A stretch of 36,377 nucleotides of DNA, from contig CALWTG010000003.1 of assembly GCA_944384385.1 (NCBI GenBank), positions 1 through 36,377 on the forward strand. Direction: 5' to 3'. Below, piece by piece: positions 1 to 29,719 of the stretch. Below the pieces are notes generated by a model. The model saw nothing but the letters and a program-made list of their open reading frames with translations. It did no database searches and had not been told where the DNA came from. The stretch's first letter is position 1. Every line of letters begins with the position of its first letter. The position numbers and the translations under genes are program-made. The stretch comes from an uncultured Clostridia bacterium. Its GTDB lineage: Bacteria; Bacillota; Clostridia; Christensenellales; UBA1242.

Positions 1-885
1 CTTGTAACGCTTTTTAAGTCTAGATAATGTTCTATGACTGGGCTTTGTTTTAATAAAACCTGTTTCTTTAAGTATCCAATGACGATTTAGAAACATAAAG
101 CCTTTGTCAATCCGCCATATTTTAGTTTTCTTTAGGTTTAGTTTCAATTTTAATTTTTCGCTAAACTCTTTTAAAACCTCAATACACTCTCTTAATTTTT
201 CTTTTGAGTTGCAAATAATGTATCCATCATCCATATACCGACCATAATATTTCATGTGCATTTTTTCTTTTAAAAAGTGGTCTAGTTCATTTGTGTAAAA
301 CAATGCACTGATTTGAGAGATTTGACTTCCCAGTCCAAGTCCAGCTTCACCCTCGAAAGAATTTACAAAGTATTCATATAAGTTGAATAACCTTTTGTCA
401 TGTATAAGTTTTCTAGCCTTTTGCAGTAAAATTTTATGATTGATGCTGTCAAAGAATTTTGAAAAATCAAAAGTTAAAATGTATCCAACATTGCCTTTAT
501 TCTTGCGAAAATACTTTTGTAGATGGGCTTTCAACCTGTTCGCTGTAAACATCAGTCCTTTATTTTTCATGCAAGCACCATTGTCATAAATTAAACTTTT
601 TGAAAGTAGTGGCACTAGAAAGTAATCACAAAAACATTTTTGAACAACTCTATCTTTGATGTGCAGTGCTTTTATTTCTCGTGTTTTTCCTCTCTCGTGT
701 ATTTTAAACTTTGCAAATGGTCGTTGCTTATATGTTCCACTATGTAGAGAATTATAGGTTTCTGCTATGTTCTGTATGGAACGGACTTGATAATTTTTGG
801 TAGATGTTTTCCAATTTACACCTTTGCAACATTCTTTATAACTATTGAATAAGTTTTCAAATGTGAATACTTCTTCAAATTTCAT
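1..885 (-). CDS. DGR reverse transcriptase (3' end truncated by window edge; absent from ORF track)
   Basis: Manual translation from ATG at 885 (AGGAG RBS upstream) is open for 295 codons to base 1: MKFEEVFTFENLFNSY...ERGKTREIKALHIKDRVVQ...TFDFSKFFDSINH...GLGLGSQISQ...YYGRYMDDG. It has the YxDD catalytic motif and a GxxxSQ motif in place of QGxxxSP. Confidence 0.96.
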   Translation of the reverse strand, partial: MKFEEVFTFENLFNSYKECCKGVNWKTSTKNYQVRSIQNIAETYNSLHSGTYKQRPFAKFKIHERGKTREIKALHIKDRVVQKCFCDYFLVPLLSKSLIYDNGACMKNKGLMFTANRLKAHLQKYFRKNKGNVGYILTFDFSKFFDSINHKILLQKARKLIHDKRLFNLYEYFVNSFEGEAGLGLGSQISQISALFYTNELDHFLKEKMHMKYYGRYMDDGYIICNSKEKLRECIEVLKEFSEKLKLKLNLKKTKIWRIDKGFMFLNRHWILKETGFIKTKPSHRTLSRLKKRYK

Positions 886-1053
886 CCTAAACTCCTTTGT
901 AAGATATTCTCGAATAGCCAATTACTTAATTAAAGTAAGGCTCATCAAAGGTCAAATTTTTAACTACTATGTAGTTAGGGAAATATAGTTCCTTTTGCAT
1001 TATGCCGCTTTCGCTTTAAAGAGCTACTTTGTTTGGCAAATATTTCGTAAAAT

Positions 1054-1178
1054 CAGAGAGCCACCGCACGAGTATTGTTGGCATTGTTGTTGTTGACATA
1101 CCCATTGTTATTCCAGTTAGCAAAATTGTTAGTGTTGTTAGGGTTAGGAGAACGAAGCCACTGGTTGTTGCCAAACCT
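1054..1178 (-). repeat. DGR template repeat (TR)
   Basis: 125 nt non-coding repeat between avd and RT. Minus strand reads RFGNNQWLRSPNPNNTNNFANWNNNGYVNNNNANNTRAVAL* with 17 AAC/AAT codons; aligns without gaps to 1783-1907 and 21228-21334. Confidence 0.97.
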
Positions 1179-1193
1179 CCGGGTGATTTACAA

Positions 1194-1586
1194 CTATATA
1201 CCCAAGCGTTGCTTGTCTTTATTTTTAACGCCTTTTATAAGTCTTTCAGTAATTCCTATCAAAGTCGCCCACTTATTCCAATACTTATCTTCAAGCTTGA
1301 TGTAAGATTTTATAAGCTCTAAATGATTGCTTAAGCAAGCCAAAGTTCCAAGCGCATCATCAAGCAATTCTGTTCGTTTTTGATAGTATGTTTTAAGGTC
1401 TAAATTGTTTGCTTTAATAAGATTATCCAAGACAGCTTGTGCATACTTATAAGTGTGTATAACGCCATAAAAAGTATATTTTTTAGGTATCTTACTACAC
1501 ATGTGCACTGTGAATTTTAATAAATCTCTCGCATAACTTATAAATTCCATAGTGCTTTCACTTCTTTTGTATGCTGGAACGCTCAT
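1194..1586 (-). CDS. avd: DGR accessory variability determinant (Avd-like four-helix bundle protein)
   Basis: 130 aa basic helical protein with IPKKYTF motif and C-terminal W...LIKG segment, immediately upstream of TR and RT. Confidence 0.88.
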   Translation of the reverse strand: MSVPAYKRSESTMEFISYARDLLKFTVHMCSKIPKKYTFYGVIHTYKYAQAVLDNLIKANNLDLKTYYQKRTELLDDALGTLACLSNHLELIKSYIKLEDKYWNKWATLIGITERLIKGVKNKDKQRLGI

Positions 1587-1704
1587 TTTGCTTTTTCTCC
1601 TTTTCTAAAAGCTTTTCATACTCTTCTTTTGTTAGATACATAATGCCAGTTTGATATACACCATTTACCACTTTTTCATATCTAACAGCAATTTTGTCTA
1701 TCAC
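1558..1704 (-). CDS. Small hypothetical protein (48 aa), not in ORF track
   Basis: GAGGTG RBS 5 nt before GTG at 1704; MIDKIAVRYEKVVNGVYQTGIMYLTKEEYEKLLEKEKKQNERSSIQKK*; overlaps the avd start. Confidence 0.55.
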   Translation of the reverse strand: MIDKIAVRYEKVVNGVYQTGIMYLTKEEYEKLLEKEKKQNERSSIQKK

Positions 1705-1722
1705 ATACCCACCTCTCTTTTA

Positions 1723-1740
1723 GCACGCTTTTCAGCGTGC
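1723..1740 (-). promoter_or_regulatory. DGR homing hairpin/cruciform downstream of VR1
   Basis: GCACGCT-GAAA-AGCGTGC: perfect 7-bp GC-rich stem with GAAA loop, 29 nt after the target stop codon. Confidence 0.85.
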
Positions 1741-1769
1741 AGATTACTTTAGATTGATTTAGCAGTAGG

Positions 1770-3008
1770 CTAAATGCAAAAGCAGAGAGCCACCGCACGA
1801 GTAGGGTTGGCACCGTTGATGAAGACATACCCATAGCTATACCAGTAAGCAAAACTGTGAGTGATGTTAGGGTAAGGAGAACGAAGCCACTGGCAGTTGC
1901 CAAACCTTAATTTCTTCTCCTCATATTCTTTGTAATACTCATACTGCTCACCCTCAAGCCCAACCTTACTATAACTTGTTGTATATCTTTTTGATGTATC
2001 GCTACCAAACACTTCGCCATCAGCCAATAAGAATAGCCAGTCTTTTGTTTTTATAATTGTGTTATCGCTAGAGCTTTTGTTTCCACCATATCCACCCCAT
2101 GTAAGCTTTGTTACTTGTTTTATTACAGCTGACAAGTCGGTAGGAAGTCCAGCAATAAATGCTCCATCGGCTTCCAAAGTTGTTTTTGAATAATATTTTG
2201 TGCCTTCAACATAATCAGTAGGCAATGTAACCTGTGTGAATGTTTCGTTGTCATCATTTAAAGTGTAATAAGTTCCTTCAGTAGTGCTTGTTACAGAAGT
2301 ATCAAAAACATATTGGTCTTCATTGCTCTTTAAACAATTGCTTCTTATAAGAGAACCTATCCATGAAATACCATTGATATTTGCTGGAGCTGTATCCCAG
2401 TGTTTATAAGTTGAGCTTGTGTATGGCAGTTTAAATGTGATGCCAGCTTTTCCACTTCCACTTGCCAAATCATCATGGTCAAAACCTATAATAGTTGCTC
2501 TTGTGTAAGTTGTTGATGTTTGTCCCATAAATGCTGATAAATCTTTAGTATCACCCAAACTCCACATATACTTTGCATATCCACCCTCTGATGCTGTTTT
2601 AATTTCATTCCAAGTATAGTCATCAAAAGCTTTGCCTGTTTTAACATTGTAAACACCCATTTCACTAATTGTAACCGTGTTAGTCCATACTTGAGCGTTT
2701 TCACTATTCTTTGCCTTAAGTGTGTATGTCCCAGCAGTATTAAGGTTAAATTCCACTGCACCACCACTTGTTCCTGTGCTCTTGCTTTCTATAAGTGCAT
2801 CATCTATCCCATATAATTCAATTGTTATATTAGGCAGTTCTGCTGTCTTGATTTTGTAACTATTCCCACCACTTGGAATAGAGTTTACGCCAGCTGTAAG
2901 CTCAGGCAGTGAAACATTAGTATTTGCGACAGTAACTGTGCCACCTTTTTGAGTAATTGCATTTTTAATATTTTGCAATTCCTGAAAAACATCTTGTTGT
3001 GTTGCCAT
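1770..3008 (-). CDS. DGR target protein 1; probable receptor-binding/tail-fibre tip protein with C-terminal CLec-like (DUF6273-like) domain
   Basis: 412 aa at the end of the tail cluster; motifs DWLFLLADGEVFG, GEQYEYY, WLRSP; VR1 encodes the C-terminus. Confidence 0.9.
   Translation of the reverse strand: MATQQDVFQELQNIKNAITQKGGTVTVANTNVSLPELTAGVNSIPSGGNSYKIKTAELPNITIELYGIDDALIESKSTGTSGGAVEFNLNTAGTYTLKAKNSENAQVWTNTVTISEMGVYNVKTGKAFDDYTWNEIKTASEGGYAKYMWSLGDTKDLSAFMGQTSTTYTRATIIGFDHDDLASGSGKAGITFKLPYTSSTYKHWDTAPANINGISWIGSLIRSNCLKSNEDQYVFDTSVTSTTEGTYYTLNDDNETFTQVTLPTDYVEGTKYYSKTTLEADGAFIAGLPTDLSAVIKQVTKLTWGGYGGNKSSSDNTIIKTKDWLFLLADGEVFGSDTSKRYTTSYSKVGLEGEQYEYYKEYEEKKLRFGNCQWLRSPYPNITHSFAYWYSYGYVFINGANPTRAVALCFCI
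1783..1907 (-). repeat. DGR variable repeat 1 (VR1)
   Basis: 125 nt ungapped match to TR with 17 mismatches, every one at a TR adenine (T on + strand). Confidence 0.97.
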
Positions 3009-3009
3009 T

Positions 3010-3255
3010 TTAATTTCCTCCTTCTAACACATAATTTCCAGTCATGAGCTTATTGCACATCTCTGGTGAAAAATAACCATATTTGCCATTGAGAAGAAGG
3101 TCAAAATAATCGTAGTGAATATAATCATCTTCATCAGCGGCTATCTCTAAAGCATTGATTTCACTAGCAAAATTTAGAGCTGGTATTTGCGCTGTTGTTC
3201 CTTTTTTTGCTCTTATTGCATCAGCAATATCTTCCAATAATTCAACTAAAGTCAT
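3010..3255 (-). CDS. Small tail-associated hypothetical protein
   Basis: 81 aa; LEDIADAIRAKKGT...FASEINAL resembles the N-terminus of target 1; translationally coupled to the upstream gene. Confidence 0.7.
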   Translation of the reverse strand: MTLVELLEDIADAIRAKKGTTAQIPALNFASEINALEIAADEDDYIHYDYFDLLLNGKYGYFSPEMCNKLMTGNYVLEGGN

Positions 3256-4721
3256 CAGTAAGACCCTCCTATAACTTCTCCTATTGCATCTTCAATTGCT
3301 TGCTGAACATAGCTCTGCATTGTCGATTGTGAAACAGTATCAATTACAAGATTTATTCCATTGTTTGTCTTTGTTTGCTCCACACCATTAAGTTTTATTG
3401 ATTGTATTGCTGTGTCAGCTTTTTCGCCCTGTTCGCTTGTCGCATAAGCAGAGCTTTCGGTGTATGCAGCACTTTTAAGCCCAGTAACTGAAATATTGTC
3501 TGTTGTGCTAGATGTTCCATTTACATTCTTTGTAACCTTTATTGTCCCATTATTTGTGCCACCAACAATAGCTATATCATTAAGTCTAGAGCTTTCAATT
3601 GATGTTACTTTACTTTTTAGCGTATCATAGCCTACAAGCGACATTGTTCCATCATTTTCAATTGAAACTTTACCTTCGGCATTTTCGCCTTTTACTATAC
3701 CTAAACTCGCATTTGTAGCTTTACTTACAGTATCAGAGCCATCATCTCTCCACCCTATATTGTCATTTTCATAGTAATGCCAAACATGATATGTTTCATC
3801 TATAACAACAGCAATACCAGTGAAAGGTGAAGTATATCCTAAATTTTTAACAAATGTATCTATTTCGGTTGCAGAAGGGTTAGTTTTTGTATCGTATAAA
3901 TATCTTGATGCCTTTCCCTCTACTGCTTGCATTCTCTCAGATAAATCATTCAATGTAGAAACTTGTTCTTTTGACATTAAGCCTCTGCTTGTAGTAGATG
4001 CAATCTTTAATGCTGTTGATTTGCTTAATAAAATTGAGCCATCATCAACACTTCTTTTTACAACCCTTATATTCATAGTATCCGCATTACTATCTTCAAA
4101 ACTTTCTCCAACAACCTCGGTTACAATAGCATTTGGCGTTTCTGCATTTGTGAAAGAACTTTTATTTATCTTTTTGTTGATTTCGTTACTAAGTGTTGTA
4201 TTTAATTCTGTCTTTGCAGTTTGAACATCACTTATAAATGCCATCTTTTCTTCTGATGTTGTGCCGTTTGTATCTTTAACTGAAACTTTAGGGTTTTTGG
4301 TAAGGCTTGAGTTGTTTATGTCTTTCATTGAGTGGTGCAACTTTAGTGGTATATTTGGGCTTCCCATCTCAACATTTTCAAAACCACCTTCGTTTTTTAT
4401 AACAACAAGCTGCTCTGTTGTTCCATTACCCCTTTCGCCATACAAAGTATTACCCTCGGCAATTTCTATATCACTGTCTATTGTTTGTATAGTTTCGCTT
4501 TCAAGCTTTACATCTTTGGCATTTTCATTATCTATGTATGTTTTTTGTGCTGTTGAAACAGGTTTATTAGCATCACTTGTGTTATCAACATTTCCAAGTC
4601 CTAAACTCTCTGCAGTAATATTTGGTATCTCTCCCGCAGTATTTTTATAATTTATAAGCTCATTAAGGGCATTTTTTAACTCCTCAGGCTTATTAACTTC
4701 AATTAGTGATAATGTTTTCAT
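3255..4721 (-). CDS. Tail fibre-like protein
   Basis: 488 aa; LGLGNVDNTSDANKPVSTAQ, ASTTSRGLMSKE and ATSEQGEKADTAIQS segments typical of phage fibre shafts. Confidence 0.75.
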   Translation of the reverse strand: MKTLSLIEVNKPEELKNALNELINYKNTAGEIPNITAESLGLGNVDNTSDANKPVSTAQKTYIDNENAKDVKLESETIQTIDSDIEIAEGNTLYGERGNGTTEQLVVIKNEGGFENVEMGSPNIPLKLHHSMKDINNSSLTKNPKVSVKDTNGTTSEEKMAFISDVQTAKTELNTTLSNEINKKINKSSFTNAETPNAIVTEVVGESFEDSNADTMNIRVVKRSVDDGSILLSKSTALKIASTTSRGLMSKEQVSTLNDLSERMQAVEGKASRYLYDTKTNPSATEIDTFVKNLGYTSPFTGIAVVIDETYHVWHYYENDNIGWRDDGSDTVSKATNASLGIVKGENAEGKVSIENDGTMSLVGYDTLKSKVTSIESSRLNDIAIVGGTNNGTIKVTKNVNGTSSTTDNISVTGLKSAAYTESSAYATSEQGEKADTAIQSIKLNGVEQTKTNNGINLVIDTVSQSTMQSYVQQAIEDAIGEVIGGSY

Positions 4722-4730
4722 TTACCCCTC

Positions 4731-5537
4731 CTATTTTTCATAACCCTTTATCATTGTTGTTCCATTTCTCGGTGCTAAAAACCACCCTTCTCTTCTATCT
4801 TCGTCATGTCTCCACCCTCCGACAAATGCAGTAAATTTCACCCTTAACGGTTCAAATTTAAAAACATCGCTTTCGCCAGAGGGAGTTGTGCTATCTTCGC
4901 CTAAAAACACTTCTATACACTGCTTTTGTTTGTTATATTCAAATCTAATCATTTTGCCCGGCTCTATCCATCCATTATTGCCACTATAGTGGTCATCAGC
5001 AACCTGACTTCCATTGATAATGACTTTATAGCCATAAAATGCATATTTGTTTAAATATCTACCTTTTAAACGAACTTCAACATCTGCTAATAATTTATTG
5101 TCTCGTATGCGATAAATTCTTAAGTGAGCCTCTTTTGTAGGTTTTTTACTTCTGCCTAATGTCGAGTCAAAATCTTTTTTATCTCTACCAATAAAACAAC
5201 AAAACTTTTTGCAATAATCTTTAAAATCAACATAAGCTTCATAGTTATACCAGCTATTTTCATCACCGCTAAAACTTGGAATTTCAAAACTTTCATCTTT
5301 TATTTGAACATGGTAAACAGGGTCAGAAGCTAAATACCCTTTTTCACTCAAAGCTGGATATCTTGATATTAAACTCGACATATTGTTCGTATTTAATATA
5401 AAATATTTATCAGATATTGTTTTGTGTCGAGTATTTCCTGTCTCATATACAATTTTTTTCTTCCCAAAACTTAATTGGGAAACAAAATTATCTCCTTTGT
5501 ATATTGCTTTGATTACTTTATTGCCTTTATAAATCAT
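4731..5537 (-). CDS. Hypothetical tail protein, possible non-diversified receptor-binding module
   Basis: 268 aa aromatic/beta-rich; N-terminal IYKGNKVIKAIYKG motif; TAATG overlap with the upstream fibre gene. Confidence 0.6.
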   Translation of the reverse strand: MIYKGNKVIKAIYKGDNFVSQLSFGKKKIVYETGNTRHKTISDKYFILNTNNMSSLISRYPALSEKGYLASDPVYHVQIKDESFEIPSFSGDENSWYNYEAYVDFKDYCKKFCCFIGRDKKDFDSTLGRSKKPTKEAHLRIYRIRDNKLLADVEVRLKGRYLNKYAFYGYKVIINGSQVADDHYSGNNGWIEPGKMIRFEYNKQKQCIEVFLGEDSTTPSGESDVFKFEPLRVKFTAFVGGWRHDEDRREGWFLAPRNGTTMIKGYEK

Positions 5538-6793
5538 TATGCCTCCTCCACAAAATACAATGTGTTATTGTCTGCAGAAGTTGGCAGACTGGTAACGACT
5601 GCTAGTTTTAAACATCCTGATGGTATATTCCCAGAAGGGTTATTTGCAACAAAATTCGACTGTGTTGCTTTTATTGAATTTGAAGAGTTATTAGCATTCG
5701 TTGCATTTCCTACAGTCATATTTGGGAAATTTCCAGTTTTTGTTGCATAAGTATCAGAAATTTTTGCGCCATTATTATCTTTTACTGCTTTATCTGCTAC
5801 ATTTGCATTCGTTGCATTGTCCGCGTTTGTTGCTTTGCCAACCGTCATACCTGTATATGTCCCATTTTGCTTTGCGTAATTTCCTTTAATGTTTACGCCA
5901 TCTTCATCTGCTTTTGCAGTATCAGCGAGTGTAGCTTTTCCAGCTTTTAGGTTTGCATAAGTTCCATTTTGTTTTGCATATCCATTAGATATGTTTACAC
6001 CATATTGGTCTGAAACAGCTTTGTCTGCATTGTCTGCGTTTGTTGCACTATTGGCGCTACCACTTGTGGATGCATAAGTCGCATTTTCTGCATTATCAGC
6101 ATTTTGAGCACTATTGACTTTTTGCCCACCCGAAATAATTTTCGAAATCATTTCCTCGTTATCATTCATTGTTGATAAGTCAGGGAGCCCATCTAAGTCT
6201 TGATATTTATTTGTAAGCCCAACTTTAGCTAAACCAATTACATGTTCTGCATCAACAACTGATGTGCCTATAATAAAACCCTCTCTCTTTACATAAATAC
6301 TTAGATAGCCTGCACCATTGTTTTCGTGAAAACATCTAACAGTTGCATCACTTTGTATTTCATATTGATTTACCGATATATAATTGCCATTACTATCAAG
6401 CAGGAACATATCCACGCCAACTTCTTTGTAGTTCGTTATTCCATGCGTTTCGGGCGAAACAATAACTTCATACATATCTGTTTGCTCATTGTATTCCCAT
6501 GTATCCTTATTTAAAGTTAGTTTATATGTTTCTTTAATTTTGCTCGTTTCTATAAAATCTTCTAAGTTCCCATCGACTTGTCCTAAAGCAGTATTTACTT
6601 CATCTACAACCCTATCAATTTCTGCTATTGCAGAATTTGCAGCATCAATAATTGGCTGATAAAATCTTCTTTTAATTTCTTCTGCCGAATATCCACGCTC
6701 GCTTGGGTTTATTGGTAGTGTTTGAGCCGATTTTCTCGTTATTGCACTTTTTGTTTCTGCGCTTACCTTTTTTACTAAAGTAACTTCATCCAT
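5537..6793 (-). CDS. Tail fibre-like protein with internal repeats
   Basis: 418 aa; NADNA-type repeats, three ~35-40 aa repeat units, C-terminal VVTSLPTSADNNTLYFV. Confidence 0.75.
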   Translation of the reverse strand: MDEVTLVKKVSAETKSAITRKSAQTLPINPSERGYSAEEIKRRFYQPIIDAANSAIAEIDRVVDEVNTALGQVDGNLEDFIETSKIKETYKLTLNKDTWEYNEQTDMYEVIVSPETHGITNYKEVGVDMFLLDSNGNYISVNQYEIQSDATVRCFHENNGAGYLSIYVKREGFIIGTSVVDAEHVIGLAKVGLTNKYQDLDGLPDLSTMNDNEEMISKIISGGQKVNSAQNADNAENATYASTSGSANSATNADNADKAVSDQYGVNISNGYAKQNGTYANLKAGKATLADTAKADEDGVNIKGNYAKQNGTYTGMTVGKATNADNATNANVADKAVKDNNGAKISDTYATKTGNFPNMTVGNATNANNSSNSIKATQSNFVANNPSGNIPSGCLKLAVVTSLPTSADNNTLYFVEEA

Positions 6794-9351
6794 TATCTTA
6801 CTCCTTTATTTAATCTGTTTATTTTGTATCTTATGGTTATCCCATTGACAGCACATGCACTTTGCGTATCACTGACATATCTAATAATTATAAAATTAAA
6901 ATTTCTTTCCTTTACCCTAATCGTATTGCTATTTGTGAATGAGCTTTCAAAAGAAAAGTCTTCAAAATCTATATCATTAAAATCAAACCCTTTTGTTCCA
7001 TAAGTGATAAAGTCTTTTTCTATATTTCTAGTTTGATATCCGATTGTTACTGCTCCTTTTACTAAAGGCTCAGTTGTTATTGACATTCCAAGAAGTGTCT
7101 TACTATACATATTTGTTCCTAAATCACAAATAGGAGTAAACCATTTAGATACTACATTTTGTTTAAAGCATATTGTCGCTAGCAATTCTGTTGGCATTGT
7201 ATAGTTGTATATAACTAAATCTAAGACATCGCCACCTGAAAACTCTTTAATTTGAAATTCGGCATTTTCTGTATCTACATTTGTTACATATAGTGTTTTG
7301 TTAGAAAGTTCTTTGCATAACCTAAACCCTAAATTTGTAGGAATAACTTGCGAGCCATTTGCATCTATGAGCTTAAATCTTATGTTGTCTAAGTCGACCT
7401 CTCCAATTTCATATTGAGTATCAACCAAAAGCCCTGTCCCATCAACTCTATCAGCATAACATTTTATACCCTGATAAAGCTTTGTTAAAGTTTCTTCGCC
7501 AACTGAAATATAGCCATCTTCATCTATTTCGAGTAATTCATTGTCATCTAAAAAGAGTGAATATAATTTACCTTGCGTTATAGTGATGCTACTGCTCTCG
7601 TTTAAATCATTGTTAAGACTTAAATTAAATAAAATTTTATCATCAGTAAATGAAACGGATAAATCTCCAGCTTCAGTATCCTGAAATGTTGTGTCTGCAT
7701 AGTTATTTTCTTCAAATATACAAATATGCCCATCAGTTGTTCCAAACAGTAATTTATTATCAATTTCACACCAAACTCTTGCATTTACATTCGTAAGATA
7801 CCACCACTCATAGTTAAAGCTATCGCTTATATCTTCATCGGCTTGAAAAGTAAATCTACTATCGCAAACATAAACTACATTTCCTACCGAAAGATAATAT
7901 TTATCTTGGTAGACAAAGCCACAGGCATCCTGTAAATTTTCTTCTTTTAATAGCTTGACATTGATGTTTCTGCTTCTTTCTCGAAGTCTATAAGCACTTG
8001 TTGCTAAATTGTCATACAATTCTAGCCCACGAACACCATTTCTTGTCAAAATTAAATTATCCCCATTTAAACTTGCTGTTGCATATCTTGCATAAATAGT
8101 GTCAGTTATGTTCCCGGCATACTTAGTAAATCTAGTTACAAAGCTTATATTCCCTGCATAATCTTCCTCTTCGGTATCTGCTCCACTTATATAATAAATT
8201 GTTGCATCTGCACCATTTTTCTCTTTAAAAACTATCAATACTCCATCTGTAGCCCTAACATATCCTAAAATAGCACTGTTGTCACTACCTATTTCATCGT
8301 AATTTGTGTCAGCGAAATATGTAAAATCATACATTTCACTCCAAACATGAACATTTTTTCTAGTTTTAGAGCTAGTTAAAAACAACCTATTTGAATTTCC
8401 TCCACCACCAAAAAGCGTGCTGAGTGATGCATTTATAATAAAATCATCTTGACCTTCTTCGCTACACTTAAATGTTATAATAATATTTGATGTATCAGCT
8501 TCTTGTGGTTTTGTGTTTATATTTAACTTTATTTTGCCATTACCATAATCAATTTCTCCCACTGCATTGATATCATCATTTTCTTTATATAGTTGTGTTT
8601 TATCGCTAGTTATCCTATTGTTAATTTTGATGAGTTCTTGGTTGTTTTCTGCATCAAGAGTATATATCTCTATGCTAACATCGCTATTGCTATTTATTTT
8701 CATGGTATCAACAGTCCATGTAGCACTGCTGTTATCCACCCCAAGCATTTCATTTTTCCTGTAGGATGACAAAAGATTTACAGCATCAAAGCTTGCCCTG
8801 TTTTCATCTGCAACACTATCATTATCTATGTTGATTGTTGTTGTCGGAATATAGGTGTCCTCATTGTCGAACACTCTTCTTAACTCAAAATTTTCACCCC
8901 ATTTTCCATAAACTAGATAATCACCGCATCCAACTATATATGCTTTGTTTTTGTTTATATAAAGCTGTATTCTTTGACTTATAAGTCTATTTGTATCAAT
9001 GTTTGCTGGTGTGTAGGTGCAAGTGTTGGTAATATTGCTGGCTATATATCTATTTTTAGAGCTATCCCAAGTTAAACGATAAAATTTAGTTCCAGCATAC
9101 ACTAAAACAATATTTTCATTTTCTATTTCAAAAGAAAAGATGCCATTTATCTCATCAGGCAATTTACACAAACTTCTCCAGCCATTTCGCTTTCTAACAG
9201 TTCCATTTTCATATAGCAAGTTTTCTGCAGAGATTGCTCTGTTTTGGGCTACTTTATAAGGAGATGTTGAGAAATCTACACCCCTAAAATTATCAAAGGT
9301 GTAAACTTTCCTTTCTTTTAATGATAAGCTCTGACTAACCCTTATACTCAT
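6793..9351 (-). CDS. Tail nozzle / DNA stabilization protein (P22 gp10 / T7 gp12-like)
   Basis: 852 aa beta-rich; N-terminal FRGVDFS...AENL...VRKRNG pattern; position after capsid and adaptor. Confidence 0.7.
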   Translation of the reverse strand: MSIRVSQSLSLKERKVYTFDNFRGVDFSTSPYKVAQNRAISAENLLYENGTVRKRNGWRSLCKLPDEINGIFSFEIENENIVLVYAGTKFYRLTWDSSKNRYIASNITNTCTYTPANIDTNRLISQRIQLYINKNKAYIVGCGDYLVYGKWGENFELRRVFDNEDTYIPTTTINIDNDSVADENRASFDAVNLLSSYRKNEMLGVDNSSATWTVDTMKINSNSDVSIEIYTLDAENNQELIKINNRITSDKTQLYKENDDINAVGEIDYGNGKIKLNINTKPQEADTSNIIITFKCSEEGQDDFIINASLSTLFGGGGNSNRLFLTSSKTRKNVHVWSEMYDFTYFADTNYDEIGSDNSAILGYVRATDGVLIVFKEKNGADATIYYISGADTEEEDYAGNISFVTRFTKYAGNITDTIYARYATASLNGDNLILTRNGVRGLELYDNLATSAYRLRERSRNINVKLLKEENLQDACGFVYQDKYYLSVGNVVYVCDSRFTFQADEDISDSFNYEWWYLTNVNARVWCEIDNKLLFGTTDGHICIFEENNYADTTFQDTEAGDLSVSFTDDKILFNLSLNNDLNESSSITITQGKLYSLFLDDNELLEIDEDGYISVGEETLTKLYQGIKCYADRVDGTGLLVDTQYEIGEVDLDNIRFKLIDANGSQVIPTNLGFRLCKELSNKTLYVTNVDTENAEFQIKEFSGGDVLDLVIYNYTMPTELLATICFKQNVVSKWFTPICDLGTNMYSKTLLGMSITTEPLVKGAVTIGYQTRNIEKDFITYGTKGFDFNDIDFEDFSFESSFTNSNTIRVKERNFNFIIIRYVSDTQSACAVNGITIRYKINRLNKGVR

Positions 9352-9352
9352 A

Positions 9353-9973
9353 CTATTCCATCCTATAAACTTGATATATATAATTTTGCTTGCTTTGTGT
9401 TTGTGCTTTTAAGTCATCAAGACAAGCCTCAAAAATGTTCCTAGCATCAGCAGCAAGATTTGGCTCTTCTTCTTGATATAAATCGCCCTTAATAAAATAA
9501 GGTATAAGCCTAGCGATATTGTCAGGAAGCCACATTTCATCAGTATCTTGCACTGTATCATCCATAGTTTTGAGTTTTGGATAATAAATAATGCGATAGT
9601 CTGCATTGGCTTTTTCAAGCAATAACTCATTCCCCTCTAACTCATAGGATGCACTGCCATCATACTCTCCATTTGCATATTCAGCACTTACCCTATCAAT
9701 AACAAACAAATCTTCTATCTTACTTAAATCAAAACGAGAAAAGTGTGTGCCAACTGTAAGCTCATCATCTGTAATAAGTCTTGATTTTGTAGGAACAACA
9801 CAAGCATTTTCAATTCTATCTAAAGCCCTAGAGATTGCTCCATTCATATTGACAATGTAACTACCATAGTTTTCATCGCTTATCATCCTTTGCAAGTCTT
9901 CTATTGCCATATCAAAACTATAGTTAGTAAACATTAGTTTTATAGCTTCAATTTTTATATCTCCAACTTTCAT
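9353..9973 (-). CDS. Head-tail adaptor (tail tubular protein A-like)
   Basis: 206 aa between capsid region and nozzle; size and synteny match podovirus adaptors. Confidence 0.6.
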   Translation of the reverse strand: MKVGDIKIEAIKLMFTNYSFDMAIEDLQRMISDENYGSYIVNMNGAISRALDRIENACVVPTKSRLITDDELTVGTHFSRFDLSKIEDLFVIDRVSAEYANGEYDGSASYELEGNELLLEKANADYRIIYYPKLKTMDDTVQDTDEMWLPDNIARLIPYFIKGDLYQEEEPNLAADARNIFEACLDDLKAQTQSKQNYIYQVYRME

Positions 9974-9990
9974 AACTTTCCTCCAAATTG

Positions 9991-10052
9991 TCTAGGAATA
10001 AGGAATTGCACCTTAATCTGCATAAAGCCATTTTCTTTAAACTATTCCCACA
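9991..10052 (-). other. Degenerate tRNA-like structure
   Basis: TGGGAA-TAGTTTAAAGAAAA...TAAGG-TGCAATT-CCTTA-TTCCTA: acceptor-like stem and 5-bp/7-nt T-arm present, anticodon arm reduced. Confidence 0.35.
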
Positions 10053-10056
10053 TGTT

Positions 10057-10090
10057 AGGCACTGCATCTCATAACTACAGTGCCTTTTTT
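10057..10090. terminator. Stem-loop after head genes (T-tract on + strand only)
   Basis: AGGCACTG...CAGTGCCT inverted repeat at 10057-10085 followed by TTTTT on +. Confidence 0.5.
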
Positions 10091-10091
10091 A

Positions 10092-10313
10092 TTAAATAAG
10101 GTCAGCATTTTCAAGCATCTTTTTAATGACATTAGGAACACTTACCTCTTTTCCTCTCTCAATAAAATATGGATACCCGTTAAGTTGAACAGCCACTACC
10201 AAGTCCTTTGGGTTTTGTTTATCAATAGGAATTTTGATAGTAACTTTTGGTAGCTTGTCTAGTTTTGCTTTCATTCCACCAGCTACAACATTTGAATTTG
10301 TTTTTTTAGCCAT
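10092..10313 (-). CDS. Hypothetical phage protein downstream of capsid
   Basis: 73 aa with AGGAGG RBS; VQLNGYPYFIERGKEVSVP. Confidence 0.75.
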   Translation of the reverse strand: MAKKTNSNVVAGGMKAKLDKLPKVTIKIPIDKQNPKDLVVAVQLNGYPYFIERGKEVSVPNVIKKMLENADLI

Positions 10314-10330
10314 AGTTTTATCCTCCTATA

Positions 10331-11329
10331 TTAGCCTTGACTTCCAGCGTCAGAGCTATCACTTGAAGTTGTATCAGCATCAGCTACCACTTCAGTTGCA
10401 GCAGAATTTACTCTCATGCATCCAAGAGCATCAAGAATAACTGCTGTAAACAACGCTTTCCAGCCGATTGTGCTGATTTGGTTTAATGGGTCGCTTCTGT
10501 CGCTATCATCATCTCTTGCGATTTTGATAATAGATTTTGGCTTGCTACCATTTTCGATATCAACGATACCATAAGCATTTTTACCTACTGCAAGTCCACT
10601 ATAAATATTTACAGGAGTGCTTGCTTCGTTCTCTGTAGGCTCAACAAGTGAAGTATCAATAAATTTAAAGCCGTGAATACGACCAACTTCACCATCTTCA
10701 ATGTTTTTGCCATTGTGGTTGTAACTGTTTACACTTTGCCACAACTCATCACGCATAACATCTGCAATTTGCTCAGGTGAGCAGAACATAAGGTAATAGC
10801 CATCTTGGAACGGTTTAATGTTGTTACGCTTCATAATTGTTCTTATTTTAAGAACTTCATCAGCTGTAAGCTTGTCTGTAGATGCGATATCATCAACATC
10901 AACACCTCCACCAACATTGTAAACATTGGTTGTCTTGAGTAGAACATCACGAGCCACCCTGTCAAGTGTTTCGCCTGCTTGTTCGCCTTCAAGCTCAACT
11001 GTTTCAGTGATGATTGGGTCATAAGCTGTTGTTTCAAGAACATCAGTAACTGATACAACATCACCATATTGAGCTACGGTTGCTTTGATAGAACTTACAC
11101 TCAAGTCCTTTGCTGTAGGAGGTGTTCCTTCAGTAAGTGGTGTAGTTGCTGGTTTAAGTGAGTTAAATTTTCTAAACTCAATAGTTTTGCCATTTCCCTT
11201 TGGAATTGGTCTTTTTTGTCCGTATTTTACGAACACAAGATTTGGTAGTGCTCTTTCAAGCAATGTTCTATCATAAAATTCTTTGATTTCTGCTGAAAGA
11301 CCTGCACTGGTTGTAGTATTTACTGCCAT
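10331..11329 (-). CDS. Major capsid protein (N4-gp56-like family)
   Basis: 332 aa; FYDRTLLERALPNLV...PIPKGNGKTIEFRK, GEVGRIHGFKF, DPLNQISTIGWK. Confidence 0.9.
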   Translation of the reverse strand: MAVNTTTSAGLSAEIKEFYDRTLLERALPNLVFVKYGQKRPIPKGNGKTIEFRKFNSLKPATTPLTEGTPPTAKDLSVSSIKATVAQYGDVVSVTDVLETTAYDPIITETVELEGEQAGETLDRVARDVLLKTTNVYNVGGGVDVDDIASTDKLTADEVLKIRTIMKRNNIKPFQDGYYLMFCSPEQIADVMRDELWQSVNSYNHNGKNIEDGEVGRIHGFKFIDTSLVEPTENEASTPVNIYSGLAVGKNAYGIVDIENGSKPKSIIKIARDDDSDRSDPLNQISTIGWKALFTAVILDALGCMRVNSAATEVVADADTTSSDSSDAGSQG

Positions 11330-11350
11330 AATTTTATCCTCTCTTTATGA

Positions 11351-12160
11351 TTAAATTTTTTCGCCTCTTTTAACCTTTTCCACCATTTGCTCGAACTCTG
11401 CTTTTGACATATCTTTTACGCTTTTAGCAGGTTGTGGAGCTTGGCTTGAAAGTTTGCCCGGCGTTGCTGCATTGTTTGCGAGTAATTGAGCAGCTCTATC
11501 TCTTGCTCTTTCTTCGCTTTTTTCTATGAAAGACTGATAATCTGCATAAATTTTAGTCATAGGCATTTTCCCAGCCTTTCCTAAGGCAAAGGTGCGAAAT
11601 AGGTCATCTTGCAAAAGTTCATCAAGTTTAACATCAGGGTGTTTGGATATAAAATCATCTCTATCTTTTGATATCCACTCCTCTTGACTGCTTGCTTCTC
11701 TTTGTGCTTTTTCCTTTTCTTTTGCTTTGTCTTTGAGAAATTTATGATAGTCAGTTATAGGGTCTTTACCCTGCTTTTCAATCTCTTTCATAGTAAGGTA
11801 TTCTTCTACATCTGCACCATCTTCCATTTTCTCGTGTGTGTATGGGTTTTCCCCGTCTAAAGCTTCTATGATTGCATCATATCTGGCTTTTTCAAGTGCT
11901 TTCTTTTGCTCTGCTCTTCTTCGCTCACGAGCATAGTCAGCATTGGTTTTTTGAGATTTTGTCTTTTCTTCACTGCTTTCTTTTGGTTTAGCATCGGCAT
12001 TCTTTGTGTCTTGTGTCTTATCTTCGCCATTTTCATTATCAGTGCTTGTAAACTCTATCTCATTTTCTTTGCTAGTGTCAGCGATTTCACTAGCTCCTAC
12101 TTCTGCAGTGTTATCTACAGGCTCGGTTGTTTGCGCTGATTGTTCTTTGATATCTTCCAT
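11351..12160 (-). CDS. Capsid scaffolding protein
   Basis: 269 aa charged, helical, acidic N-terminus, C-terminal MSKAEFEQMVEKV; located between portal and capsid. Confidence 0.75.
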   Translation of the reverse strand: MEDIKEQSAQTTEPVDNTAEVGASEIADTSKENEIEFTSTDNENGEDKTQDTKNADAKPKESSEEKTKSQKTNADYARERRRAEQKKALEKARYDAIIEALDGENPYTHEKMEDGADVEEYLTMKEIEKQGKDPITDYHKFLKDKAKEKEKAQREASSQEEWISKDRDDFISKHPDVKLDELLQDDLFRTFALGKAGKMPMTKIYADYQSFIEKSEERARDRAAQLLANNAATPGKLSSQAPQPAKSVKDMSKAEFEQMVEKVKRGEKI

Positions 12161-18720: not shown

Positions 18721-19541
18721 TTTCCCTCCTTTTTATCTTCATAGATATAAACTTTTCTAAATCTATATCTAAAAAACAAACCTTTTTTACCCATAACAAT
18801 AGGCTTTGTTTTGCCATCTTCAAAAATGACTTGTTCTTTGTCGATATCAACTCTGTAGCTAGGCACTTCAGCCAATATGTATTTTTCTAGTTTTGACTGA
18901 TATTTAAAGATTAAGTATAAATCAAAGGCACACACATTTATAAGCACAAACCAGTCAACCAATGTCAATGATGCCCAGTCAATAAAGCCGCTACCCAAGA
19001 AACAAATTGTAGCTATGCCAATAGTTCTAAATATGATAACTATAATTGCAAAATACCAATACTTCATTTTTGTCATTCCAGCGACTGCACAGAGCGCATC
19101 ATCCGGGAATATAGGAAACAACAACATAAGTGGCAGTAGCATTTTTGATTTCATATCTAAAAGATTTTGAGCTTTCTCTAAACTGCTTTTACCCACCAGT
19201 TTCTCAATTGTTTTTTCGCCCAATGTATTGCCAAGAAAAAACATAAGAGAAGATGCAAGAAAAACTGATATTGTGCTTATAATAAAACCATATAAAGCAC
19301 CAAACAACACAATTGATATTGCTATAAATGTTGCTGATGTTCCCGGCATAAAGCATAATAGTGTAGCACTAATTACAAATAGTAAAATAAACACTACCCA
19401 GCCCCATGCTCCACATCTTTCAACAAGTTCTCTTAAGCCTTCTAGGTCGGTTACCCCTAGCGCTTTAAGTGCGAAATATACCCCCACACTCAAAGCAACT
19501 ATAACCAACACTGTTATTAAAATTTTAACCCAGTTTTTCAT
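18717..19541 (-). CDS. DedA-superfamily (TVP38/TMEM64, VTT domain) membrane protein
   Basis: Multiple TM segments; FMPGTS...GALYGFIIS...GNTLG and LLFPIFPDDALCAVAGMTKM motifs. Confidence 0.88.
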   Translation of the reverse strand: MKNWVKILITVLVIVALSVGVYFALKALGVTDLEGLRELVERCGAWGWVVFILLFVISATLLCFMPGTSATFIAISIVLFGALYGFIISTISVFLASSLMFFLGNTLGEKTIEKLVGKSSLEKAQNLLDMKSKMLLPLMLLFPIFPDDALCAVAGMTKMKYWYFAIIVIIFRTIGIATICFLGSGFIDWASLTLVDWFVLINVCAFDLYLIFKYQSKLEKYILAEVPSYRVDIDKEQVIFEDGKTKPIVMGKKGLFFRYRFRKVYIYEDKKEGK

Positions 19542-21169
19542 AAATCTTCTCCTATCATTTGTCTAAAAATTGCCATTAAAACATTGACAACTATACTATC
19601 TCCAGCGAGATGATAAAGACTTGCATTGCTTTGATTTTGTGCAACCTTATCAAAATCTTCATCTTTTACACCCATAAGTCTAAAACATTCTTTAGGTGTA
19701 AGTTTTCTTATCCTTAAATTACTTATGTATGCAAATGAGCCACATCCGCAATCATTACCACAACTTGTTGATAATGTTCCAGCAATTCCATCTTTTAATG
19801 GCCTCGCATTATATAAGTCAACAAACTCGGGTATTTCGCCATTATTGTTCTTTATTGTTTCAGCAAGTTTCTTATCAACGTATTTCTCTTGTTGCTTTAC
19901 AACCACACCCAAACAATCGCATCTTGTATCTAGTGTTGGACTGCAATCGTGGAATTGATTATTTTGAATATACATATTATCCATTCTGCTTTTTGAATAG
20001 CTATGTCGGATAACATCATTCTCTACCACTCGATTATTTACTATAAGCGAGTTACATAGTTGTCTTTTTAAATTATCTTCAACTGCATACAACCCAGTTT
20101 TTGCACCCATTCCACCACCATTTGCAACAAGACTAACAGAGATGCCTTCAGTGTCATAAACTCTGTAGCCTTGTGGTTGATTTTGTGTAAGTTCCATAAG
20201 TTGTGGCTCAACTACACATTTAGGGTCTTTATAATCTCTTGCCATTATTGTTGGGCATATCCCATCTTTAGGTATTTTGTTCTCAAGCTTGCTTGATGTA
20301 AAATTAGTTTTTAAGCTACCTTCTATCGCTTTACTGCTCAAATAATATTTTTCATCAACTTCTTTTTCGAGAATATCTTTGAGCCTTATTTCCAATTTTT
20401 GTTTTTTAGGAAACTCATACAAATAATCACCAAGCAAACTAACCATAAAGCATCTTTCTCTATTTTGTGGCACGCCAAAATCTTTCGCATTTAACACTTG
20501 CCAATAGCAGTGGTAGCCTAACTTTTCCAGCTTTTCTAGCCATTTTGCAAAATGTATTATATTTTTACTACCAATAACATCAGGAACATTCTCCATAAGC
20601 AGTATTTGTGGTAAGTTCTCACACTCATCAAGTATCCTTTCAACTTCCCAAAGCATCCCGGACCTCGTGCCACTACCTTTCTCCATTCCTTTGCCCAGTC
20701 CAGCTTTTGACAGGTCTTGACACGGAAATGAATAAGTCATTAGATAGCAATATTTATCTACATCCACAATTTCTAAATCACTTGCCTTTACTTGTTGAAT
20801 ATTAACTAAATTGTGTGAAGCTTTAATATTATTATAAATTTGTCTTTGTTTTTGCTCGCCCAGTCTTTTGATTTGCTCTCTTGTCATAGGCTCATTATAA
20901 TTTGCACTTATGCCTTTACTTGTAAGATAATCTATCATTTCGTCTTGCGTTAAATTTTTAGAGTAGTCTGTTATATCATCTTTGAAATGCAAATCTTTTA
21001 ATGCTTGTATGCTCTTTACAGCCCATTCGCAAGTTTTGTAATGCTCAAAATTTATGTTTAAATATTTAAGTGCAAGTGCTTGACTGTCATAGCCACTAAA
21101 CAATGATATAAGGCGGACTGGCTTGTTGAGTTTAAAAGGCATTGTTCCATCGAATATACTTCTCTGCAT
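19538..21169 (-). CDS. DNA (cytosine-5) methyltransferase, long variable region
   Basis: LFSGYD (motif I), FPCQDLS (IV), MENV (VI), QNRER (VIII), RKLTPKECFRLMG (IX), AGDSI (X). Confidence 0.93.
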   Translation of the reverse strand: MQRSIFDGTMPFKLNKPVRLISLFSGYDSQALALKYLNINFEHYKTCEWAVKSIQALKDLHFKDDITDYSKNLTQDEMIDYLTSKGISANYNEPMTREQIKRLGEQKQRQIYNNIKASHNLVNIQQVKASDLEIVDVDKYCYLMTYSFPCQDLSKAGLGKGMEKGSGTRSGMLWEVERILDECENLPQILLMENVPDVIGSKNIIHFAKWLEKLEKLGYHCYWQVLNAKDFGVPQNRERCFMVSLLGDYLYEFPKKQKLEIRLKDILEKEVDEKYYLSSKAIEGSLKTNFTSSKLENKIPKDGICPTIMARDYKDPKCVVEPQLMELTQNQPQGYRVYDTEGISVSLVANGGGMGAKTGLYAVEDNLKRQLCNSLIVNNRVVENDVIRHSYSKSRMDNMYIQNNQFHDCSPTLDTRCDCLGVVVKQQEKYVDKKLAETIKNNNGEIPEFVDLYNARPLKDGIAGTLSTSCGNDCGCGSFAYISNLRIRKLTPKECFRLMGVKDEDFDKVAQNQSNASLYHLAGDSIVVNVLMAIFRQMIGEDL

Positions 21170-21184
21170 TTTATCCTCCTTTGC

Positions 21185-21200
21185 GTGCCCTTTCGTGCAC
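21185..21200 (-). promoter_or_regulatory. Imperfect DGR homing hairpin downstream of VR2
   Basis: GTGCAC-GAAA-GGGCAC: 6-bp stem with one A:G mismatch, GAAA loop, 14 nt after the stop codon. Confidence 0.7.
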
Positions 21201-21214: not shown

Positions 21215-21964
21215 TTAAAGACAAAAGCAGAGAGCCACCGCACGAGTATTGTTGGCATAGTTGTTGTTGACATACCCAGTGTTATTCCAGGGAGCAAAAG
21301 TGTTAGTGGTGTAAGGGTTAGGAGAACGAAGCCATGTCCATGTATAAGGCAGATTTGAGTTTTTAAAATATTCATAAATTTCACCCTCACCCTCACAAGA
21401 ACAATCAGTAGTTCCTGCTATCTCAATTTCGCTAGGTAAGAAAAGTTTGTCCGTTGTTTCCACTATTTCTTCACTTTCGCCACCAGCAGAAGTCTTTTTC
21501 TTTACTGGTAAAATTAGTGCTTGTAAGTCGCTTGGTAACAGCTTATAAAATCTAGGCATGTAAGTATTTCGCATCTTGCTATCTTTCCAGCCACCCACAT
21601 TTGTGCATTCTTCATTCATCTCATACTCGCCATCAACATAAAACATAAATGTGGCTTTTGCTTTTGTTGCTGGAGAATAATCAGCACGAACATCATGTGG
21701 GTTTAAGCTAATCAATTTTGCTTTCACTTTCTCGCCAGTGTATAACTCAAACTCTTTTTCATCCCCAACTCTTAATACTCGTTCAGCATCGCCTGAGTAT
21801 AAAATTGTTTTTATTTCGCTCCATGATAAGTCTTTTAGCTTTTTAAGTTCGCCTTTTAATTCGGCAACATAATTGTCGATTGTTTCCAACATAGCATCTT
21901 CGCCATGCACATTGTTTAATCTATTTTGCAATTCTTTGATTGCATTGATAACTTCGTTATTCAT
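21215..21964 (-). CDS. DGR target protein 2 (remote); short N-terminal coiled coil plus CLec-like (DUF6273-like) domain
   Basis: 249 aa; GGWKDSKMR, DKLFLPSEIEI, EGEIYEYF, WLRSP...RAVALCFCL; carries VR2. Confidence 0.92.
   Translation of the reverse strand: MNNEVINAIKELQNRLNNVHGEDAMLETIDNYVAELKGELKKLKDLSWSEIKTILYSGDAERVLRVGDEKEFELYTGEKVKAKLISLNPHDVRADYSPATKAKATFMFYVDGEYEMNEECTNVGGWKDSKMRNTYMPRFYKLLPSDLQALILPVKKKTSAGGESEEIVETTDKLFLPSEIEIAGTTDCSCEGEGEIYEYFKNSNLPYTWTWLRSPNPYTTNTFAPWNNTGYVNNNYANNTRAVALCFCL
21228..21334 (-). repeat. DGR variable repeat 2 (VR2)
   Basis: 107 nt ungapped match to TR 1054-1160 with 7 mismatches, all at TR adenines. Confidence 0.95.
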
Positions 21965-21972: not shown

Positions 21973-22863
21973 CTAAAAAATTGAAGTTTCTTGCTGTTCA
22001 GTTAGCCTATAGCTTGTTCCCTGTAGTTTTATTTTTGCTGTGGACATTGCAGCAATTCTATCCACAGTCTTTTTCATAAGCCCACAATTTTCAACCAAGT
22101 CAACTAAACTTTCATTACTGGAGAATATTGTTGGCTTTTTGTTTACATATCTAGCATTTACTACATCGTAAATTTTGTCTTGCAACCATGTCTTTTCTCC
22201 GTTCTTAACCATTTGTTCTGTGCCTATATCATCAATTATCAAAAGGTCTATTGTTGCAAGCTTTTCAATAAAATCGCTTTCAGTGATAGAATTATCGCTA
22301 AACGATTTTTTAATTTGTTTTGAAATTTCAAAGAAATTTGTAAATAAAACTGGTATCATTTTTGCTAAAAGATAATTTCCGATGCAAGCGGTGAGCAAAC
22401 TTTTGCCAGTTCCGACATCGCCATAAAGGTAAATTCCTAACCCTTCTTTTTTAACATCTTCCCACCTTTCGCAAAAATTTTTGCATCTTGCAACAGCATC
22501 AATAAAATCTTGAGGTCGGTTTAGGTCTAAGCTATCAAAACTAGCATTTTTGTATCTTTCGCCAAGCAAACTCGCTTGCTTTAGTTTTTCAAAACGCATA
22601 AGTCTTTGCTTTTTCTGTTCTAACTCTCTCTGCTCTTCAAGAGCTTGCGATTGACATTTGCAAAGACAACCAGCTACAAATTTTCCATCTTGCCAATATC
22701 TTTTGCCTTTACAGTGCTCGCAAACCAGCTCATAATTTTCCGTTAGACAATCACCCTCTCGCATTTTGTATCTAGCAAAATAATTTTTTCTTGCAGTTAA
22801 GAGCTCTTCTTCGCTTAAAGGCTCATTGCTTGTTTCAAAAAACATTTTTGCTAACTCCCCCAT
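21973..22863 (-). CDS. DnaC/IstB-like AAA+ helicase loader
   Basis: CEHC...CLC zinc motif, GDVGTGKS Walker A, LLIIDDIG Walker B, PTIFSSN. Confidence 0.92.
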   Translation of the reverse strand: MGELAKMFFETSNEPLSEEELLTARKNYFARYKMREGDCLTENYELVCEHCKGKRYWQDGKFVAGCLCKCQSQALEEQRELEQKKQRLMRFEKLKQASLLGERYKNASFDSLDLNRPQDFIDAVARCKNFCERWEDVKKEGLGIYLYGDVGTGKSLLTACIGNYLLAKMIPVLFTNFFEISKQIKKSFSDNSITESDFIEKLATIDLLIIDDIGTEQMVKNGEKTWLQDKIYDVVNARYVNKKPTIFSSNESLVDLVENCGLMKKTVDRIAAMSTAKIKLQGTSYRLTEQQETSIF

Positions 22864-26438: not shown

Positions 26439-27034
26439 TATTTCGCCCCCTTCCCACTGTTGTTTTGCTTTGTTTGTTTTTTGATAGCTTCGTCTGCTTG
26501 CTTATATGTTATTTTTTCAACTGCATCAACCTTGTAGTAAGCAGCCATTTTATTTAGCCTTTCTTCATCAAAGCCCAGCTTTTTAAGCTCTTGTATTTGT
26601 GTTTTTGTGATAAGTTTTTCGGTTTTTTCTGCTTTATCGCCTTTATTGGTAGTATCACTATCTACATTGTCATCTAGAGCAAGCAAGCCATTTAATGCAT
26701 ATTTCCTAGCATAAGAGCTTGTAGAGCCTGAGGTCTGGCTTTCATCCATCTTTGGCTTTGCTTTTGGTGGTTCTTGGGCATACGCAACTGCTGATACATT
26801 TTCCTTGTTTTCAATATCAACCAGTGTTGCAGTTGCTTTAATATAATTTTTATCTCCAGCATTTGCCAGCTCATCGTTGAGCAAAATCACACAATTTAGT
26901 TCCTTTAAAAAAGGCTTTAACGCTTGCAAAATATCTTCGCATGAGCGGTATTTAAACTCTCCAAAACTGTTGAATTTATCTTTTGTTACAGTAAGTTCGG
27001 TTTGTATTTTTAATAATTTTTCATAAATACTCAT
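26438..27034 (-). CDS. erf: ERF-family ssDNA annealing protein
   Basis: FNSFGEFKYRSCEDIL and GSTSSYARKYALNGL motifs. Confidence 0.9.
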   Translation of the reverse strand: MSIYEKLLKIQTELTVTKDKFNSFGEFKYRSCEDILQALKPFLKELNCVILLNDELANAGDKNYIKATATLVDIENKENVSAVAYAQEPPKAKPKMDESQTSGSTSSYARKYALNGLLALDDNVDSDTTNKGDKAEKTEKLITKTQIQELKKLGFDEERLNKMAAYYKVDAVEKITYKQADEAIKKQTKQNNSGKGAK

Positions 27035-29668: not shown

Positions 29669-29673
29669 AAAAG

Positions 29674-29719
29674 AAAATAAGATAAATTTCAGTAATTTTT
29701 GAGATTTATCTTATTTTTT
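29674..29719. terminator. Bidirectional terminator between convergent genes
   Basis: AAAATAAGATAAATTTCA...TGAGATTTATCTTATTTT inverted repeat. Confidence 0.65.

Follow-up and report, generated by a model that had tools for sequence, protein, structure and literature searches.

Does the beginning of contig CALWTG010000003.1, from an uncultured Clostridia bacterium (assembly GCA_944384385.1), hold a genuine diversity-generating retroelement (DGR), and if so which genes does it diversify? The window, by which we mean the whole stretch of DNA analysed, is the complete contig of 36,377 b, one of 106 in an assembly of 1.06 Mb with 34% GC. We conclude with high confidence that it carries a prophage-borne DGR in which one template serves two targets. 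All parts of the element lie on the minus strand, and from 5' to 3' on that strand they are target 1, a GAAA-loop hairpin, avd, the template repeat (TR), a structured spacer and the reverse transcriptase (RT).

The TR (1054..1178) and variable region 1 (VR1, 1783..1907), which forms the 3' end of target 1, differ at 17 of 125 positions, every one of them a TR adenine (nine to T, five to G and three to C; hypergeometric P = 1.3e-10), and their homology extends on the TR side to ~1047. This confirms the 17 of 17 adenine mismatches reported in a preliminary description of the first 3,008 nucleotides, and a recount of the TR gave exactly the 125 nt, the 39 adenines and the 17 AAY codons stated there, these codons holding 34 of the adenines in the VR1 frame. 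NNY codons encode 15 amino acids and no stop, and 15^17 is 9.85e19, so the accompanying figure of ~10^20 protein variants is right as arithmetic. Beyond the range of that description, ~19 kb from VR1, the 3' end of another gene that is not adjacent to the cassette, target 2, carries VR2 (21228..21334) and is served by this TR as well. In VR2 the homology with the TR sets in 18 nt later than it does in VR1, the region contains 15 AAY codons, and all seven differences again fall at TR adenines (P = 1.6e-4). Both VRs are in frame and each terminates its open reading frame (ORF), and there is no non-adenine difference between the TR and either of them. A repeat search of the window returned a single family of three copies (1049-1178, 1778-1907 at 86% and 21223-21352 at 82%), and no further TR-like copy beyond the TR, VR1 and VR2 is present in the 106-contig assembly. 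The invariant TR/VR 19-mer has no locus in viral_contigs; its four loci in metagenome_contigs, all in contigs of 71-74% GC, were rejected as chance matches.

One further A to C change lies just outside VR1, at TR position 1053, where a TGA of the TR stands against TGC (Cys) in both VRs, the stretches compared being 1047-1053 against 1776-1782 and 21221-21227. Two codons further on, the TR has TAC, VR1 TGC and VR2 TGT. Because Cys is retained at both positions in 12 of 12 target 1 and five of five target 2 sequences, we read the two sites as a fixed boundary of the VR and TR ends and not as mutagenised sites, although a boundary marker and a selected mutagenised site are both conceivable from the sequences. 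The same TGA/TGC pattern is seen in relative G019; in relatives G064 and G156 the corresponding A varies between VRs.

Far from being invariant among relatives, the outcome that the preliminary description had set against its own proposal, VR1 is hypervariable. Among the window and nine relatives with 83-95% identical target 1 proteins, pairwise identity is 16.1% at the 17 AAY columns, compared with 85.6% at VR columns without A and 91.8% in residues 1-367 of the same ten sequences. Target 2 behaves alike: in the window and four relatives (86-93% identical) identity is 18% at AAY columns, 92.4% at VR columns without A and 93% elsewhere. In a 12-sequence target 1 set, 202 of 204 residues in AAY columns are among the 15 amino acids encoded by NNY, a share that is 81% for the remainder of the protein, and both exceptions occur in one sequence (P0005). 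Among the differences listed for contigs of four runs, the four inside VR1 (1805, 1814, 1816 and 1819) all fall on TR-adenine positions, and three of them differ between runs. These comparisons support an apparent diversification activity at the level of the lineage, as judged from relatives; the source sample itself stands outside this support.

The RT gene (885..1) is represented by its 5' 295 codons. The ORF begins at ATG 885, which is preceded by an AAGGAG ribosome-binding site, or at TTG 921, and is still open at base 1. The two motifs named in the preliminary description were located, YMDD at 237..226 and GSQISQ within LGSQISQ at 333..313. The protein matches Pfam RVT_1 (1.6e-23) and phrog_1423 (3e-81), and its best PDB match is the Bordetella DGR RT 8ub7_A (99 bits, 3.7e-27; entry title 'Diversity-generating retroelement (DGR) ribonucleoprotein reverse transcriptase'), in an alignment that pairs LGSQISQ with IGSLTSQ of the Bordetella enzyme, bRT, and YMDD with YMDD; group II RTs score at most 53 bits (best 6ar1). 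By tblastn the RT gives 100-212 bits to RTs of phages with annotated DGRs (BPP-1, VHML, Bacteroides phage p00, crAss-like phages and Shimadzu) and 55-64 bits to plasmid ltrA genes. The RT phylogeny that had been suggested as a check leads to the same place: in a maximum-likelihood tree of 18 RTs (six from phage DGRs, five from group II introns and seven from the window and its relatives, with retron RTs outside the set), the window RT is sister to that of Shimadzu (100/99) and nested in the DGR RTs, the split of the five group II RTs being supported at 100/100. These sequence relationships support assignment of the RT to the DGR clade and not to group II.

The preliminary description held that the RT runs off the window and that the DGR is apparently intact, and both statements need adjusting. 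The ORF does run off at base 1, but the edge is the end of the contig and of the assembly, and not of the window alone. Long contigs of two other runs, which span 1401-4721 at ~95.6% identity (145 of 3,321 letters differ), extend by their record coordinates ~13 and ~19 kb past window base 1, and since relatives' contigs continue there the break is taken to be an assembly end. No k-mer overlap joins this contig to another, and a weak match (E 0.03) of a second contig to the RT C-terminus was rejected, as it lies inside a longer unrelated frame. As to intactness, 295 codons are open and a complete RT of 331 aa exists in a cluster representative, P0223, which is 98% identical and differs at five of 295 residues; the last 36 residues lie beyond the contig end.

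That an avd gene is present was borne out. It encodes 130 aa (1194..1586) and matches phrog_3206, 'Avd protein of DGR', at 4e-5. The AlphaFold2 (AF2) model is a four-helix bundle with a mean confidence (pLDDT) of 85.5, and the top rows of its Foldseek search are 2gsc, the bAvd chains of 8ub7, and 4dwl (TM-score 0.70-0.78, E 0.009-0.06), with scores of 0.70-0.72 to the bAvd chains and to 4dwl. Eight aligned homologues occupy the same position in relatives, of which three match Pfam bAvd (best 6.5e-10) and two match 23S_rRNA_IVP; against PDB sequences neither the single protein nor the eight-sequence profile found anything relevant. Between target 1 and avd there is also a 48-aa ORF (1558-1704, minus strand) that has a GTG start after GAGAGG and overlaps the avd start; in the relative L007 the gap between the two genes is only ~60 nt.

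The spacer between TR and RT (873..1041), which overlaps the RT start, is the Rfam RT-2 RNA (RF03077). In cmscan it reaches 50.1 bits (E 7.3e-10), above the gathering score of 40, over the full model, 1-222, with two internal regions much shortened. The scan took in the window and 12 loci, and in six of these 13 RT-2 occupies this position, scoring 145 bits in Shimadzu, 170 bits in MT837512 and 44-93 bits in three host-family loci. In BPP-1 the corresponding spot is taken by the RT-10 motif, and other RT motifs have been speculated to serve DGRs (PMC5737381), a speculation that the six RT-2 occurrences fit. No paper stating a link between RT-2 and DGRs was found in the literature searched, and the association is possibly a useful by-product of this analysis.

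The TR and both VRs have a common GC-rich 3' end. Downstream of VR1, 42 nt past its last invariant base, is a hairpin (1723..1740) with a 7-bp stem of which five pairs are GC and, in the sense strand, a GAAA loop; a counterpart read from the sequence after VR2 (21185..21200), 27 nt past the last invariant base, pairs at five of six stem positions and again has a GAAA loop. Across the loci compared, hairpins with 7-8-bp stems follow the VRs at 20-42 nt, with stem sequences that differ between loci; the loop is GAAA at window VR1 and at both VRs of G064 and of G156, and is of other sequence at both VRs of G019. None follows the TR in the three TRs scanned (window, G064 and G019). Phage VRs are described as being followed, at 4-34 bp, by hairpins required for homing that have GRNA loops and GC-rich stems of 7-10 bp (PMC3240598), and the VR1 hairpin fits the phage DGR target-site hairpin or cruciform of that account.

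Target 1 (1770..3008) is a 412-aa protein with a Pfam DUF6273 match of 25.5 bits against a cut-off of 23.5. Its AF2 model (pLDDT 91.6) shows a poorly defined helical N-terminus, an immunoglobulin (Ig)-like sandwich (~48-122) and the DUF6273 domain (~125-412), of which VR1 spans the last four strands. The best solved match of the large domain is 9qa6_A (VIA Z 13.7, root-mean-square deviation 3.9, 191 residues aligned), and the region matched is the DUF6273 N-terminal domain of a bacterial IgA peptidase (PMC12402451). The resemblance to 4eps_A, a Bacteroides fimbrial tip protein, obtained with the whole-protein model, has a Z of 7.3 that is in the range of common arrangements, and Foldseek of the whole protein against PDB returned Ig-like domain matches only. 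A C-lectin-like fold is putative here and rests on PMC10743442, where DUF6273 is so described, with the VR as a surface β-hairpin. In BFVD the best match is an uncharacterised gut-phage protein (47% identity) and the second a tail-collar fibre protein (E 1.5e-19), with many phage DUF6273 proteins besides. Target 1 is probably a receptor-binding tail protein, and the role in tropism proposed for it in the preliminary description is plausible from gene position and fold. A second variable patch (2349-2408, residues ~201-220) distinguishes near-identical relatives, for example KHWDTAPANING vs KHHNSGSGTVNG; it is outside the VR and has no tie to the TR.

Target 2 (21215..21964), of 249 aa, has an N-terminal helical stretch followed by DUF6273 (53 bits, 4.8e-14), and is 24% identical to orf43 of Shimadzu (E 6e-10). 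Its neighbours are a DnaC-like loader (22863..21973) and a C5 DNA methylase (21169..19538), in the early half of the prophage. Indeed, the small target sits among DNA replication and recombination genes, and not among virion genes, in four of four lineages examined (the window, G064, G019 and Shimadzu). One could imagine it as a diversified binding protein expressed early in the infected cell or lysogen, directed for example against a variable host factor, and no part of the virion, but we consider this improbable, and homologues of ~39% identity that carry the Mtd_N virion-attachment domain speak against it.

The anatomy of the element, the adenine-only differences, the affinity of the RT and the hypervariability among relatives are demonstrated here; how the parts would act together follows established DGR biology. 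The avd-TR-spacer-RT region would be transcribed, and the structured RT-2 spacer would set up priming with Avd and the RT. The RT would copy the TR to cDNA, misincorporating opposite template adenines, and the cDNA would replace the homologous 3' ends of both target genes, a replacement that may be guided by the common GC-rich 3' end and by the GAAA-loop hairpin downstream of each VR. As 34 of the 39 TR adenines are in AAY codons, each round would re-deal at most 17 residues of target 1 and 15 of target 2, with 15 amino acids to choose from and no stops, and these residues would sit in the C-terminal strands of the DUF6273 (lectin-like) domain.

Several observations weigh against the interpretation of the locus as a prophage-borne DGR with two targets. 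The final 36 RT codons are on no other contig of the assembly, and the intactness of the RT in this genome is therefore deduced from the 98%-identical P0223. Taken alone, the window Avd has no sequence match in Pfam or PDB. Of the three species-level relatives closest to the window, L009 has RT-2 below the gathering score (24.8 bits), and L007 and L008 give no RT-2 match at E up to 0.1. The hairpin after VR2 is imperfect, and an automatic perfect-stem scan found none there. Contigs cannot show minor alleles, and in the comparison of contigs from four runs the VR2 rows are confounded by relatives' TR aligned there. Finally, membership of the virion is putative for both targets.

Some of these points would suit a cassette that is a dead relic in this genome, its RT truncated or inactive and its TR/VR differences a record of ancestral activity: the RT ORF stops at the contig edge with its C-terminus nowhere else in the assembly, and merely 21% of TR adenines are altered in VR2. 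Such a relic is nevertheless very improbable, given 295 open codons with YMDD and LGSQISQ intact, only five residue differences from the complete 331-aa RT, relatives' contigs that carry on ~13-19 kb past base 1, and the accumulation of not a single non-adenine difference between TR and VRs. It has also to be asked whether ordinary positive selection or recombination might have made the C-termini hypervariable next to an unrelated group II intron or retron enzyme. The relatives are mosaic elsewhere in the genome, and the best NCBIfam match of the RT is the group II model TIGR04416, yet its 108 bits are far under the cut-off of 300, which none of 61 host-family genomes reaches, and the retron RT model NF038233 gives 37 bits against a cut-off of 235. 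In 1-3300 the Rfam scan found no intron RNA family at E up to 1, its sole match being RT-2, and no retron msr/msd RNA, though no search aimed at msr/msd was made. Selection of that kind would have to place every TR difference at an adenine and 202 of 204 variable-column residues in the NNY set, and the 100/100 split of the tree separates the RT from group II enzymes; we regard the probability of this explanation as vanishingly small.

What the DGR is for is a separate matter, and here an alternative deserves more weight, even if we think it unlikely: target 1 may be no determinant of host range but an adhesin, for example for gut mucus or glycans as has been proposed for Hoc-like DGR targets, with tropism set perhaps by target 2 or by the fibre genes upstream. 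An Ig-like sandwich and a lectin-like domain are generic adhesion modules, the closest solved DUF6273 domain comes from a bacterial IgA peptidase, a separate fibre-like protein is encoded just upstream (3255..4721), and the roles of such target pairs are called unclear (PMC11792537). Set against this, target 1 closes the virion block and adjoins avd-TR-RT, a position shared with mtd of BPP-1 and the Shimadzu tail-fibre target, and the tail-collar fibre protein is its second-best BFVD match.

Ahead of target 1, the final gene of the virion block, are genes for TerL, a T7-like portal, a major head protein, an 852-aa structural protein and, immediately upstream, the 488-aa fibre-like protein; no sheath, tube or tape-measure family matched among the window ORFs scanned. 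The window holds neither an integrase nor a tRNA. Past a cI/Cro-like gene, over 28244-36377, GC falls from 35.1% to 30.7% and the genes look cellular, including those for a LiaG-like protein, a SIMPL protein and a 745-aa LigD with phosphoesterase, ligase and primase-polymerase domains; the prophage would thus appear to end near 28 kb. A scan for promoters and terminators gave no signal above shuffles.

Comparison of 1-3300 with host-family DNA gave a strong match in five genomes of other genera and in none of six other species of the same genus, which fits a mobile, patchily distributed element, and megablast of 1-12000 against a phage collection found no near-identical record. At least part of the stretch is contained in 20 of 24 listed runs, from ten studies, most of them labelled chicken-gut, bird or gut metagenome. 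This is a well-formed, apparently active DGR in a little-known setting, a host genome of ~1 Mb with a prophage that recurs in bird-gut metagenomes.

Three other features of the prophage may be recorded. A 97-aa protein (27034-27327, minus strand) that adjoins Erf and the cI/Cro-like regulator consists of the Spo0A C-terminal DNA-binding domain alone (Pfam 3e-17). In the tail block, a 418-aa protein (5537-6793, minus strand) without family match has degenerate tandem repeats of two families, of the 'NADNA...GTY...VGKAT' type. At 4721-5731, which includes a 268-aa ORF (5537..4731) without family match, long contigs X6 and X8 from two other runs have 875 other letters instead; their flanks match, and the arrangement resembles a swapped cassette within the tail gene block.

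How does this DGR compare with systems already described? The closest is that of the Roseburia phage Shimadzu (LR596903.1), whose RT is the best match of the window RT in the phage collection (41% identity) and whose cassette has the same order of target, avd, TR, spacer and RT. Shimadzu also has two VRs, of ~129 and ~111 nt, one in a tail-fibre gene beside the cassette and one in orf43 ~14 kb away; orf43 is a small DUF6273 protein that parallels target 2 and has a methyltransferase and Erf as its neighbours on either side. As in the window, the differences from the TR are at adenines only. The two phages have different hosts, however, and the Shimadzu annotation lists a sheath, tube, tape measure and baseplate, whereas the window ORFs scanned are without such matches and include a T7-like portal. 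The large targets give no BLASTP alignment (E 0.2), the N-terminus being Phage_tail_fib in Shimadzu and an Ig-like sandwich in target 1.

The Bordetella phage BPP-1 has the same gene order, mtd-avd-TR-brt, with an RT 29% identical to that of the window (E 9e-22), the Avd fold, adenine-specific differences and a tail-associated gene with a VR at its 3' end. A GAAA-loop hairpin follows its VR (PMC3240598), as at window VR1, where the distance of 42 nt is beyond the 4-34 bp range given there. It differs in having, in the stretch of its record covered here, one annotated VR, in Mtd, against two DUF6273 targets in the window, and in a spacer that is the RT-10 motif (PMC5737381) and not RT-2. Group II intron RTs and maturases belong with the window RT to a common superfamily (RVT_1, YxDD), but the family cut-off is not reached, there is no intron RNA and they are separate in the tree.

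The pairing of a large and a small target is itself familiar. In the Faecalibacterium phages Lelie and CP11 and the phages nd4 and nd12, a large and a small DUF6273 protein have one TR in common, with the VR at the C-terminus of the DUF6273 domain as in the window (PMC11792537, which reports such pairs and cites the two Shimadzu targets), although the RTs of this group are only 32-35% identical to the window RT and the large targets of nd4 and nd12, unlike that of the window, have a VR near the N-terminus. Small single-domain DUF6273 targets are described as proteins of 234-294 aa with a helical N-terminus (PMC10743442), and non-adjacent targets within 50 kb as common in phage-associated DGRs (PMC5758913). 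Among the relatives, in G064 and G019 a single contig carries a large target beside the cassette and, 20-28 kb from it, a small target, and in G156 the small target is on a separate contig; differences at TR adenines number 15 of 16 and 14 of 15 in G156, 19 of 19 and 20 of 20 in G019 and, by eye, all in G064, and the relatives' small targets adjoin genes for YqaJ exonuclease, primase and methylases. A tail-side large and a replication-side small DUF6273 target recur as a pair across distant phages, and the window adds to a two-target layout already described in other gut phages a DGR that is genuine but ordinary.

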